Assembly: GCA_019057865.1 (NCBI GenBank)
Contig: JAHLWP010000006.1
Coordinates: 89,955 to 153,954, forward strand
Source: Promethearchaeota archaeon
GTDB lineage: Archaea > Asgardarchaeota > Lokiarchaeia > Sigyniarchaeales > SOKP01
Reading direction: 5' to 3'
Length of the DNA stretch: 64,000 bases
Positions within the stretch are counted from its first letter, which is position 1; every line of letters begins with the position of its first letter. This document shows positions 13,709 to 17,805 of the stretch, piece by piece. The notes under the pieces were generated by a model that was not told the origin of the DNA, did no database searches, and was given only the letters and a program-made list of their open reading frames with translations. The position numbers and the translations under genes were made by a program.

Positions 13709-14743
13709 TTAAAATGGAAAAATAGCAGTTAAAATATTATTTTTAAAATTGGCTTTAATAATCCTTGCTTTAATTTTTTTACCTAATAGTTCTGGTGAAT
13801 ATATCATTGGTTTTTTTAATAACACTTTTATTCCCATATTTGTATCAATTTTCCCTATACATTCATGTTTCCATCGTCCATTAGATACAATCTTTAAGTC
13901 AACTATGTCATTTTTTTTTAGATTTAAAGGCATTGTTTTCTCTCTTTTATGAATACCAAAATCAATTGGACCAAGTTTTAATTTAATATCATATTTTTTT
14001 TCCAATTTGGTTAGTTGAGTATAAAAATAATCCCAAGATTTAGGACGTATTTTCTTTAATTTCCGACCAGTTCGGTATATCAAATATTTTTGAATCCCTA
14101 ATTGAATTTTTTTTTCTGAATATCCTTCTCTTCTTTTATTAACCACGAGTTTTATAATTTCTTCAATATCCTCATCATTTTCCCTTGGAAACCAAACTGG
14201 TGCAAGTAATACATTAATATTGGAATCAAGTAAAAGATCAATATTGGCTAGTAATCTATCCATATCATATTCTTTACATGCACATAAATAACTTGCCTTG
14301 CTTGGACTTAAAGTATTTAAGCTGATATTAATTTGAGTAAGATTTGCATTTTCTAGTTTCTTTATAGTCTTTTTGTTTAGCATTAAACCATTACTCTGCA
14401 TAGAAATTCGTTCTATTCCATCAATTTCCCATAATTTCTCTAATAGAATAAATAATTCAGAATATAGTAAAATTTCTCCATAGGGAGCAATATGAATTTC
14501 AATATCATAATTACCTTTTATTTGGATAGTATTTTCTAAAGTTGCAATTAAATAATCTGATGCTACAATAAAATTGGTTTTATAATCTCCTGCACTTACA
14601 AAACAATATCGGCATTTTAGATTGCATAATGTCAATGGTTTTAATTCAACAATATTTGTACCTCTATCGATTACTCCTATAAAATCGACTCCGTATAAGG
14701 GAATATCCGATTTTTCATTAACATAAATAACTTCAGAGGACAT
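13709..14743 (-). CDS. Radical SAM protein with C-terminal TRAM-like domain
   Basis: GVIDRGTN, CNLKCRYC (CxxxCxxC), GEILLY and MQSNG motifs. Confidence 0.88.
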   Translation of the reverse strand: MSSEVIYVNEKSDIPLYGVDFIGVIDRGTNIVELKPLTLCNLKCRYCFVSAGDYKTNFIVASDYLIATLENTIQIKGNYDIEIHIAPYGEILLYSELFILLEKLWEIDGIERISMQSNGLMLNKKTIKKLENANLTQINISLNTLSPSKASYLCACKEYDMDRLLANIDLLLDSNINVLLAPVWFPRENDEDIEEIIKLVVNKRREGYSEKKIQLGIQKYLIYRTGRKLKKIRPKSWDYFYTQLTKLEKKYDIKLKLGPIDFGIHKREKTMPLNLKKNDIVDLKIVSNGRWKHECIGKIDTNMGIKVLLKKPMIYSPELLGKKIKARIIKANFKNNILTAIFPF

Positions 14744-14750
14744 ATTTTTT

Positions 14751-15824
14751 TTAAAATTTGTATCTTAAAATACCTATAATTGAACCTAAATCGACTATTT
14801 GTCGCCCAGTGGGATGCTCACTACTTAAAATATTTATCATGCCACCAGAATTTTCTACATCTGTTATTATCTTCTCTATACCGAGTTTATGTTTCTTGCT
14901 AGCTCCCCTTATCATAGTATCAGCTAAAAATAATTCTTTGATAGCTCCTTTTTCTGCGGCTGGTGAAACTTCATTTATGCCTATGACAATAAGATCTGCA
15001 TCTGTACTAAATATTCTAAAAATTTCTTCAATTTTTTCTGATTCTAACAAGATTTTGGCATTCAATTTTAACTTTCCCAATTCTTTTGATTTTAATGCTT
15101 CTAATATTGCACTTTCAGTACCAGAGCTCGCATAGACACTTCTAATTTCAGAAATTTTTTGAGAATTTATTTTATCTCTTATATATTTTATAAAAAGATC
15201 TCGTGTGTTGCCAGGACCGCAAACAATAATTAAATTTATTTGAATATTTTTCAAATTTTCTTTCAAAACTTTTTTTATATCTTCAAAAAATTCTAAAATT
15301 GCTTTATTTCTGTAAGATTGTTCATATCTTTTACCTGGAATATTCTTTTTTATTGTAGCAATTCTTTTATGACTAAAATTCGTAATGATTGCCAAGGTCG
15401 CAAGCCCTCGCTCGATTGCAATGAAAAACATGACAAAGTTAGATTCAAATTTAGATGTTTCTTGTAAACGTGATATTTCAGTTTTTAACCATTTTTCTTT
15501 ATTTATTGTCAATTTCTGCCCAATTTCAATATTAAATGTATGATATGTCCCATAGCTCACAAAATCCTCAGGCCCCTCTAAAATTGTTCCTTTTATTCTT
15601 AGCCTATTTGTAAATTCATGGAAGGATACGTCCTCAACATTTAATTTTAAATACATAGGTTTTCTCTCGCCTTTAGATCCTTCTTTCAGAACTATTCTTC
15701 GCTGAGTTCGAGCAGCTACTTTATCATTTTTAGAGACAAGATTAAATAAAATCCAAAGATCATATAAACTTTCAATTTTCACTGTAATTTCTTGTTGCTT
15801 CTGATTGTACTCAAGGATTTTCAA
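14751..15824 (-). CDS. pelA: mRNA surveillance protein Pelota
   Basis: DLWILFNLV, RLRIKGTI, YHTFNI, IPGKR, GPG and SSEHPTGRQI...IIGILRY motifs. Confidence 0.93.
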   Translation of the reverse strand: MKILEYNQKQQEITVKIESLYDLWILFNLVSKNDKVAARTQRRIVLKEGSKGERKPMYLKLNVEDVSFHEFTNRLRIKGTILEGPEDFVSYGTYHTFNIEIGQKLTINKEKWLKTEISRLQETSKFESNFVMFFIAIERGLATLAIITNFSHKRIATIKKNIPGKRYEQSYRNKAILEFFEDIKKVLKENLKNIQINLIIVCGPGNTRDLFIKYIRDKINSQKISEIRSVYASSGTESAILEALKSKELGKLKLNAKILLESEKIEEIFRIFSTDADLIVIGINEVSPAAEKGAIKELFLADTMIRGASKKHKLGIEKIITDVENSGGMINILSSEHPTGRQIVDLGSIIGILRYKF

Positions 15825-15966
15825 TTATAATTACATACTCCTTAGAAAAAATCTTTAAATTATAGAATAATGGATAATAAAAAAATTAAATCATATAAAC
15901 TGAAGCTGATATAAGTTCAATCTTAAAAATAAATAAAAAAAATATAGAAAATATCAAAAAAAATCT

Positions 15967-16119
15967 TTATTTCTCTCCTAAAGCTTCTTTAACCTTTTCC
16001 AATTCTTCCATACGTTTCTTTTTCTCTTCTTCTCTCTTCTTTAATTCTTCAGGATCTGGCTTTTCAAGAGATACACCTTTCTTTATTGCCTCTTTAAGTT
16101 CATTATTAAGTTCGGGCAT
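15967..16119 (-). CDS. 50-aa microprotein with a WH2-like motif, not in the ORF track
   Basis: MPELNNELKEAIKKGVSLEKPDPEELKKREEEKKKRMEELEKVKEALGEK. SD AAGGTG upstream of the ATG; fills the gap between rimI and pelota. Confidence 0.75.
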   Translation of the reverse strand: MPELNNELKEAIKKGVSLEKPDPEELKKREEEKKKRMEELEKVKEALGEK

Positions 16120-16214
16120 TTTTATATTACACCTTTAAATCTTTAATTAGAGAATATAATTTTTTTATACGAATATTATAATAGAATTTATTTATAAGTT
16201 TTAGTTTATAGTAA

Positions 16215-16664
16215 TTAAGTGCTTAATTCCATTAAGTAAGCATCTTCACCCGATTGATAATAATTTTCTATTATTTTAGAGTTTTTTTGAAAATTGAATT
16301 TTTCATACAATTTTATTGCGATAGAATTATTTACTTGGACATTTAGAACAATTTTTTTAATTTCCTTTAATCTTTTAATCCTTTCTATTGTTTCTTGTAG
16401 AAGTAATGATCCATACCCTTTGCTTTGAAATTGGGGATGAATAAGAAAATTAATTAAATTGGCTTGATCTTCTCTATCTTTTATGACAACTATAAATCCT
16501 ATTAACTTTTTCATAATTTTACCATCCTCTAGCTTTAAAAAGAGTATATTTTGCTGAATTAGTTTTTCAACTAATTTTATTGAAAAAGCATTTTCTTTAA
16601 ATATGTGATGTTCGAGATTAGAAATACTTCTTAAATCTCTTATACTTACATCTTTAATTTTCAT
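16215..16664 (-). CDS. rimI: RimI-like GNAT N-acetyltransferase
   Basis: HPQFQSKGYGSLLL, LNVQVNNSIAIKLYEKFNF and NYYQSGEDAYLM motifs. Start placed at ATG 16664. Confidence 0.85.
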   Translation of the reverse strand: MKIKDVSIRDLRSISNLEHHIFKENAFSIKLVEKLIQQNILFLKLEDGKIMKKLIGFIVVIKDREDQANLINFLIHPQFQSKGYGSLLLQETIERIKRLKEIKKIVLNVQVNNSIAIKLYEKFNFQKNSKIIENYYQSGEDAYLMELST

Positions 16665-17805
16665 TAAAACCATATTCCTTTTTAAATTCATTAATAGGAT
16701 TTTTTTCTGTTATCTGCTGATATCTTGAAATTCTAAATGGTGTCATTTCTACTATATAGCCTTGTAAGTGGTACTTTTCTAATAGAGATATGAAATCATT
16801 ATTTATTGAAATATAAAATGGAATTTTCATATTTTCTCCGTTAAATGATATGAGATTTTGGTTGATTTTTAATTCAGACAATAAAATCTTATGAAACTCT
16901 TCCAAATTCTTTCCTTTCCCCTCTAATTGAGCAAAAACTAAAAGACCTTCTTCGGTTATAACTTCAAATGGTAATTTAATATTTTTTGCCCTTCTAAGGT
17001 ATCTATTTTTCAATTGATAATAATCTTTAGCCATTATAGAGCAGAAATGTATTTTTAAAGAAACAGATGGATATAATTTTTTAATCAGTTTAAAGGCAGT
17101 TTCTTGACTGTTAACTACAGATGCCATTGAGCCTTCCTTCAATTTAAAACCTCTATTTTTTAATGTTTCACTATTAGAAAAACAAAATTCAAATTCATTT
17201 AAATTTATAAAGTCTGCTCCAATATTATCTAAAAAAATTATAAATTCTTCAAGACTTTTTATATAATCTTTATCTGGAATAACTGGTACTTCAGCTCCTA
17301 CATATATTCCCTTATTTAAAGCATTTCTAATATTATCCCATTTTTCTTTAGGTGGATGGAATCTGATTTCATCCAATCCTGCCTTAGCAAGTTCATTAGC
17401 AATAGATTCATCAAAATTTATGCCATTTGTATAAAGATGGACATGGAACCTTTTTCCTTTTTTTAATTTAACATATCTAATGTATTGAAGAGTTTTTTCT
17501 AAATTCAATTCTAAAAGTGGCTCTCCACCAGTTATACTCATTCCTTTTGCACTTATTTTATTAATTTCTTCAACTAACTCCTCTTTCGAGTCTATCTGTA
17601 TCTCATCTGCGTATGTAATATCTTTTCCTCTCCTTTTATCTGAGATAGGACAATACCAAGAACAATGATTAGGCTTTTGGCAAATTCCATTTAAAAATAA
17701 AACTGCTTTAGCTCCTTTTAGACAATATTTACATCCTAAGGGAATCCCTCTTCCTTTGATATAAAATGATTCACTCTCCGCTTCTACTATTTTAGTTTTT
17801 TTCAT
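16654..17805 (-). CDS. Archaeal radical SAM protein
   Basis: GCKYCLKGAK, CQKPNHCSWYCP, ITGGEPLL, HLYTNG and DEIRFHP motifs. Confidence 0.88.
   Translation of the reverse strand: MKKTKIVEAESESFYIKGRGIPLGCKYCLKGAKAVLFLNGICQKPNHCSWYCPISDKRRGKDITYADEIQIDSKEELVEEINKISAKGMSITGGEPLLELNLEKTLQYIRYVKLKKGKRFHVHLYTNGINFDESIANELAKAGLDEIRFHPPKEKWDNIRNALNKGIYVGAEVPVIPDKDYIKSLEEFIIFLDNIGADFINLNEFEFCFSNSETLKNRGFKLKEGSMASVVNSQETAFKLIKKLYPSVSLKIHFCSIMAKDYYQLKNRYLRRAKNIKLPFEVITEEGLLVFAQLEGKGKNLEEFHKILLSELKINQNLISFNGENMKIPFYISINNDFISLLEKYHLQGYIVEMTPFRISRYQQITEKNPINEFKKEYGFNEN

Follow-up and report, generated by a model that had tools for sequence, protein, structure and literature searches.

WH2 motifs are found in tandem in Spire, Cordon-bleu and VopL/VopF, and profilin is a known binder of actin monomers. 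In Crenarchaeota, the C-terminal helix of Arcadin-2 is said to bind the hydrophobic groove of crenactin. Actin control in Asgard archaea appears to depend chiefly on profilins and gelsolins, and the only actin regulators described from them are profilins and gelsolin/cofilin-type proteins (bioRxiv 10.1101/2025.11.30.690169). The two-domain gelsolins of Asgard archaea carry a WH2-like motif of the LKKT type in their linker, and contact between this motif and actin has been seen in crystal structures (PMC9433394; bioRxiv 10.1101/2025.11.30.690169). Outside the archaea, the profilin of Leishmania has a WH2-like insertion that helps it to bind actin (PMC10907219).

Here we describe a 50-residue microprotein encoded in a stretch of DNA of 64,000 nucleotides (the window) from a Loki-type Asgard archaeon. 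A search of the literature for its family returned no description, only the four-residue WH2-like motif of the gelsolin linker. The microprotein is probably a previously undescribed regulator of archaeal actin and a good candidate member of a third regulator class in Asgard archaea. With moderate confidence, we regard it as a WH2/beta-thymosin-like binder of Lokiactin and as the free, single-unit form of a module of the Asgard actin cytoskeleton.

The microprotein gene, its neighborhood and its conservation

The window is AT-rich (23-37% G+C), and a genome-wide search found the gene in single copy in the source genome. The ORF and the Shine-Dalgarno element of the initial annotation were recovered exactly, the latter as AAGGTG, and the stretch that it had quoted is present in the protein (L8, I12, G15, L18, K20 and P21). 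Features of the locus are collected in Table 1. Because the Shine-Dalgarno element, the upstream 'ctattataat' box and the T-rich tail are all kept across 20 loci, the gene looks like a separate transcription unit. A scan for sigma-70 promoters and hairpin terminators was set aside as unsuited to archaea.

Table 1. Coordinates of the features discussed in the text (window positions unless a locus, contig or genome is named)
Feature	Coordinates	Strand	Evidence or remark
Microprotein CDS (P0001), 50 codons, ATG to TAA, stop included	15967..16119	-	ORF read-out; orthologs; pN/pS 0.14
WH2-like segment, codons 5-22	16054..16107	-	invariant I12/G15/L18; AF2 helix 2-14 and loop 15-22; matches of N-WASP, MIM and Spire WH2 in profile searches
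Content of the WH2-like segment: amphipathic helix (L8, I12), then G15, L18-E-K20-P21	16054..16107	-	
Charged C-terminal helix, codons 23-46	15982..16053	-	order-wide invariant E32/K35/R36 core; AF2 pLDDT >90
M37/L40/V43/L47 stripe on the charged C-terminal helix	15982..16053	-	
Shine-Dalgarno-like AAGGTG, 10 nt 5' of ATG	16130..16135	-	kept in 20 orthologous loci
'ctattataat' box, candidate archaeal TATA element, ~57-66 nt 5' of ATG	16175..16184	-	conserved in genus loci; function putative
T-rich tract 3' of the stop codon, candidate archaeal oligo-T terminator	15922..15966	-	conserved; function putative
GNAT acetyltransferase, on one side of the microprotein	16215-16691	-	
Pelota, on the other side of the microprotein	14751-15824	-	
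Gene order radical-SAM / GNAT / microprotein / pelota / radical-SAM	13709-17805	-	
K/E-rich, coiled-coil-like ORF of 206 aa	12995-13615	-	no Pfam match
Free microprotein in genome G055	2869254-2869406		long-start form 8.24 kDa
RHH-module locus L027	1363-2646	-	
RHH-module loci L066, L067, L068			
RHH-module locus L105	889-1857	-	
RHH-module locus L107	827-1885	-	
Profilin-like protein L075, source genome, contig C77	1501-2112	+	~203-205 residues
Profilin-like protein L076, source genome, contig C28	1219-1836	-	~203-205 residues

The GNAT acetyltransferase and pelota genes that flank the microprotein share its strand, and radical-SAM genes lie outside both. This order of five genes is kept throughout the genus and, within family f2, in 3 genomes from 2 genera; the gene context of the ortholog is different in family f4 and in genomes G038 and G028. 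The ORF directly before the microprotein in genome G055 appears GNAT-like by eye. A further ORF of the window, K/E-rich and coiled-coil-like, is listed in Table 1.

The conservation on which the initial annotation had staked its proposal was borne out. A search with the protein as query found an ortholog in 40 of 41 related genomes, nearly always as an open frame of ~50-60 codons, and matches in family f4 came from this search. Among 16 orthologs of the same genus, mean pS was 0.51 and mean pN 0.07 (pN/pS 0.14), a signal of purifying selection; relative to the copy in the window, pS is ~0.7 while protein identity is still 70-77%. Profile A4 matched 38 of 40 genomes of family f1 and 3 of 3 of family f2, all of one order, and returned no match in the sampled genomes of the other 25 families of the phylum. 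In these searches, the microprotein family was found in one order of the phylum only. A word-index search of public data yielded 172 clusters of ~50 residues, with 'hypothetical protein' and MAGs of Lokiarchaeota, Promethearchaeota or Hermodarchaeota as source names. Since orthologs in NCBI MAGs are annotated in this way, gene callers as a rule do detect the gene, and the suggestion that length cut-offs had hidden it is not generally true. The gene is real, purifying selection acts on it, and translation of its ortholog is documented (see below).

Two parts can be distinguished in the protein. The N-terminal half reads L8-x3-I12-x2-G15-x2-L18-x-K20-[V/P]21, which is the register of WH2, and is followed by the charged C-terminal helix. 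Across the 65 sequences of alignment A3, no variation occurs at I12, G15, L18, K33, K35, R36, E39, L40 or K44. Order-wide (alignment A4), only E32, K35 and R36 are invariant, all of them in the charged helix; likeness to WH2 does not account for this. AF2 modeling from the 65-row alignment (pLDDT 85.5) predicted a helix at 2-14, a loop at 15-22 and a second helix at 23-46 with pLDDT >90, in agreement with the charged helix that had been proposed to follow the motif. Comparison of this model with the PDB by Foldseek gave no match, and VIA-align returned only long single helices (Z ~4, rmsd 8-9 Å), which were uninformative. Searches of Pfam and NCBIfam with P0001 returned nothing useful. A TMA7-like, ribosome-associated protein was considered as a candidate and rejected for want of Pfam support.

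Likeness to WH2 and beta-thymosin sequences

The pattern L-x3-I-x2-G-x2-L-x-K-[V/P/I] is a near-invariant core that is common to the free units and to the repeat units described below. The copy in the window belongs to a subclade with LEKP at the end of this core; LQKV is the usual form in the genus, and LKKV appears in many distant members. The WH2 reading of the initial annotation is supported in part. The pattern is real and falls on the most conserved N-terminal positions of the family. Its spacing (L8, I12, G15, L18, K20) is exactly that of the WH2 signature, in which an amphipathic helix with L/LL-x2-3-I leads to G three residues later and to L-[KR]-[KR]-[VT] from the third residue after G; the Pfam models do not recognize the protein, and LEKP is a weak equivalent of LKKT. 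The WH2 HMM scan that had been proposed gave no match of Pfam WH2 (PF02205) on P0001 at E<=10, and the best family members scored 13.0-13.1 bits (E ~0.08), below the gathering score of 23.1 bits. PF02205 and Pfam Thymosin (PF01290) had no match at E<=10 in the six-frame translation of the source genome, PF01290 had none on eight family members, and a phmmer search of the PDB with one thymosin-like ortholog found no thymosin or WH2 match. Because both Pfam models remain below threshold, membership in either family is not shown.

Profile searches of the PDB, which covered 177,635 sequences, point consistently to a likeness with WH2. With the family profiles, the WH2 of N-WASP was first among natural proteins and MIM was also matched; these single-domain matches to WH2 chains had E-values of 0.3-1.5, and in the first family profile de novo TIM barrels scored like the WH2 chains. 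A profile built from the repeat proteins only had Spire WH2 as its top match. A joint profile of 22 module positions returned 8 PDB matches at E<=10 (the best at E 0.0096 and 0.034), 7 of which are WH2 peptides crystallized with actin (N-WASP, Spire and MIM). In the reciprocal direction, the family profile retrieved from 1.84 billion proteins one protein with four Pfam WH2 motifs (E 2.9e-4). The retrieved protein, P0210 (439 aa, from a Logan contig; four Pfam WH2 motifs, E 3.4e-23), has an N-terminus resembling a secretion signal and looks like a bacterial actin-targeting effector. In the ESM-Atlas, the nearest named clusters of the microprotein carry Thymosin, with scores of 0.83 and 0.81 that serve as a lead only.

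The short WH2-like pattern is not confined to proteins with a known actin role, as shown by P0182 (762 aa, from a JGI contig), a eukaryote-like protein with FHA, PP1-binding and SAP domains. Its repeats comprise many units of the type A-I-K-A-G-V-Q-L-K and are sub-threshold for Pfam WH2 (E 0.0021). From these sequence comparisons, we read the WH2 likeness of pattern as real and specific, yet not strong enough to establish descent.

The module in other proteins and in Lokiactin co-immunoprecipitation

The microprotein is the free-standing, single-unit form of a module of ~45 residues. P0001 served as founder of the family profile, which among 1.84 billion proteins gave significant matches over both halves of the unit, including P0129 (E 5.3e-24), P0147 (1.1e-12) and P0162 (4e-10). 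Proteins of ~480-490 residues with ~10 units (ten-repeat proteins) occur in family f2, where 8 of 14 genomes yielded one; none was found in 131 genomes of the family to which the source genome belongs. Their unit consensus is LL-x-E-I-x4-L-x-K-[I/V]-D, followed by a charged helix. In the AF2 model of the ten-repeat protein (pTM 0.17), long helices are linked by loops of low confidence that coincide with the L-x-K-[V/I] segments, so that no compact solenoid is predicted. A compact helical hairpin or solenoid fold was accordingly left unsupported, hairpin matches having been absent as well.

The module is also attached to profilin. In P0147 (from a Promethearchaeota MAG), P0162 and L106 (255 aa, family f1), an N-terminal Asgard profilin is followed by 1-4 modules. 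Pfam Profilin is the best match of the profilin part (19-22 bits, near full length), and phmmer matched it to 5zza_P (E 6.9e-9) and also to 5zzb, 5yed and 7pbh, of which 5ZZB is a Lokiarchaeum profilin (PMC10907219). The source genome itself encodes two profilin-like proteins (L075 and L076, Table 1) that have a conserved C-terminal extension in common, unlike the module, and a plain profilin-like ORF of 137 aa on contig C9 (L078).

Other fusions join the module to a ribbon-helix-helix (RHH) domain, either alone, after an LRR, or after a small GTPase. An RHH-like domain with a SEFIR-x-AI motif adjoins the module in proteins of ~140-450 residues in the genus and family, and the small GTPase is Ras-like. 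No copy of the RHH-module fusion was found in the source genome. The RHH-module proteins could be signalling or gene-regulatory, and the RHH, LRR and GTPase fusions have no evident actin link.

Published Lokiactin co-immunoprecipitation data were examined for the module (bioRxiv 10.1101/2025.11.30.690169, Supplementary Table 2, sheet 'CoIP Lokiactin'). Mass and gene order served to link entries of the table to sequences of a Lokiarchaeum-type genome (G055; a single contig of 6.0 Mb). For the G055 ten-repeat protein, taken as 488 residues, the monoisotopic mass comes to 56.414 kDa, which matches the 56.41 kDa listed for GNAMCCOK_04085, and a two-domain gelsolin 57 kb from its gene matches GNAMCCOK_04136 (B35_2DGel1), 51 genes away. 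The ten-repeat paralog is verified to be GNAMCCOK_04085. This 56.41-kDa protein was recovered with 44 peptides, 70.5% coverage and 366 spectra, at a log2 actin/IgG ratio of 4.53 (adjusted p 0.0021), with Lokiactin itself at 4.44 and profilin reaching only 1.07 (bioRxiv 10.1101/2025.11.30.690169).

The predicted gene index of the free microprotein of G055 is exactly that of GNAMCCOK_02436. Translation, the other stake of the initial annotation, is likewise documented for this Lokiarchaeum ortholog, which has values in 16 of 16 proteome sample columns at a mean log2 of 18.41, compared with 17.38 for the profilin B35_Pro2 and 19.22 for the ten-repeat protein (bioRxiv 10.1101/2025.11.30.690169). 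In the co-immunoprecipitation, it was represented by 5 peptides at log2 0.57 (adjusted p 0.105) and was quantified in 3 of 3 actin precipitations and 1 of 3 IgG controls (bioRxiv 10.1101/2025.11.30.690169). The free microprotein is thus translated, with no significant enrichment with Lokiactin in this experiment. Co-immunoprecipitation does not show direct binding.

Neither GNAMCCOK_04085 nor GNAMCCOK_02436 is discussed in the text of the preprint (bioRxiv 10.1101/2025.11.30.690169). The same holds for the strongly enriched GNAMCCOK_04250 (20.6 kDa, 91.7% coverage, log2 5.1), GNAMCCOK_00333 (log2 9.2) and GNAMCCOK_02751 (log2 7.7), and for a 4.41-kDa microprotein, GNAMCCOK_03085 (log2 2.66, adjusted p 4.7e-4) (bioRxiv 10.1101/2025.11.30.690169).

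Possible functions and comparison with known systems

Taken together, the profilin fusions and the recovery of the ten-repeat paralog with Lokiactin tie the module to actin, albeit indirectly. We infer direct actin binding, the binding site and a preference for monomers over filaments; monomer binding is placed no higher than this because the Pfam models fail, LEKP is weak, conservation is strongest in the C-terminal helix and the free form is not significantly enriched. In the proposed mechanism, the N-terminal amphipathic helix (~3-14, with an L4/L8/I12 face) would insert into the hydrophobic, barbed-face cleft that separates subdomains 1 and 3 of Lokiactin, and the G15-x2-L18-x-K20 segment would lie extended along the actin surface. 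The charged helix 23-46 could make further contacts along the monomer or filament. The combined effect would be to buffer actin monomers or to hand them over. Several points argue against binding of the WH2 type. With LEKP, the copy in the window has an acidic E at a position that is basic in WH2, and P at the position of V/T; in addition, the ten-repeat protein was found only in family f2, and the gene order with GNAT and pelota is conserved.

This gene order also bears on a second explanation, which we hold to be doubtful and which assigns no direct actin role to the microprotein. It would instead be a charged helix-loop-helix adaptor, a coiled-coil-like module for protein-protein contacts with the GNAT, pelota and radical-SAM neighbors or with signalling/RHH proteins as partners, and its likeness to WH2 would be convergent or due to chance. 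Persistence of the five-gene order through the genus and three f2 genomes would fit such an adaptor, but the gene has its own promoter-like box, Shine-Dalgarno element and T-tract, so that co-transcription with its neighbors is not needed, and its context differs in f4, G038 and G028. The concentration of conservation in the C-terminal helix, the fusions to RHH, LRR and GTPase domains, the failure of the Pfam WH2 and Thymosin models, the non-significant enrichment of the free form and the recurrence of the short pattern in the eukaryote-like FHA/PP1-binding/SAP protein all speak for the adaptor. Profilin fusions and the co-immunoprecipitated ten-repeat protein are nonetheless hard to explain if there is no link to actin, and seven WH2 peptides among eight PDB matches are unlikely to arise by chance.

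A third explanation, to which we give a rather low probability, keeps the link to actin and moves the binding site to the side of the Lokiactin filament. The module would bind there with one unit per subunit, as a stabilizer or ruler like nebulin or a tropomyosin-like protein, and the free unit would decorate filaments weakly or compete with the long form and would not sequester monomers. Recovery of the ten-repeat protein at a ratio equal to that of actin, with many spectra, is what such a ruler would produce, and the barely enriched free unit is as expected of a single low-affinity site. The units of ~45 residues are also mostly helix, with a long charged helix that is absent from WH2. The conserved N-terminal positions, however, follow the WH2 register and not an SDxxYK-type motif as in nebulin, and profilin, to which the module is fused, binds monomers, which speaks for G-actin. 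A chance open frame, unexpressed in AT-rich intergenic DNA, might be suspected from a short K/E-rich protein in a genome of 23-37% G+C, but is excluded by the data: conservation across four families, the pN/pS, the conserved translation signals and the detected ortholog peptides.

We therefore return to the WH2/beta-thymosin-like Lokiactin binder as the preferred reading. If it is true, Asgard archaea have a third class of actin regulators in three settings, namely on its own, joined to profilin, and as an array of ten units that is bound to Lokiactin in vivo, which bears on how complex actin control was before eukaryogenesis and on the origin of WH2 motifs. A bolder extension, improbable on present evidence, would make the module the archaeal ancestor or sister of the WH2/beta-thymosin motif, with the RHH fusions, including those with LRR or small-GTPase parts, acting as MRTF-like gene regulators that sense G-actin; a third class of actin regulators would then predate eukaryogenesis. 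The actin role of the microprotein is directly testable with a synthetic peptide of 50 residues.

Among known systems, Arcadin-2 of Crenarchaeota (PMC5173319) is a case in which a peptide-like protein regulates an actin within the archaea, as is proposed for the microprotein; it has no relation to the microprotein in sequence or lineage, and it is neither repeated nor mobile as a module. The linker motif of Asgard gelsolins and the module are both short motifs of the L-x-x-V type in Asgard proteins, but the former consists of four residues, whereas the module is independent, with a helix of its own and no gelsolin domain. The Leishmania profilin, in which both parts contribute to the binding of actin, provides a precedent for a profilin and a WH2-like element in one chain, an arrangement paralleled by P0147, P0162 and L106. 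In Leishmania, the element is inserted within the profilin fold; in the archaeal fusions, 1-4 modules follow the profilin domain.

With the beta-thymosins (PF01290; thymosin beta-4, ciboulot and tetrathymosin), the microprotein shares the build of a free peptide of 40-55 residues that runs from an N-terminal helix through an LKKT-like segment to a second helix at the C-terminus. Multi-repeat beta-thymosins and the ten-repeat proteins have a period of ~40-45 residues, and the orthologs in G038, G028 and G055 have a longer, beta-thymosin-like spacing between helix and motif. The likeness is one of build only and gives no evidence of common descent: the microprotein matches neither Pfam Thymosin nor a thymosin in the PDB, and its C-terminal helix is longer and begins straight after the motif.

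WH2 (PF02205; N-WASP, MIM and Spire) differs from the module in several respects. The module scores below the Pfam threshold, the copy in the window has LEKP, K/Q takes the place of the second leucine of the LL pair in free units, and an obligatory, conserved charged helix of ~25 residues follows the motif. The two nonetheless agree in the register of the hydrophobic helix positions, the glycine and L-x-K-V, and WH2 chains are the best natural matches of the module in the PDB. WH2 and the module alike are met as free units, as tandem arrays and in fusions with other domains.
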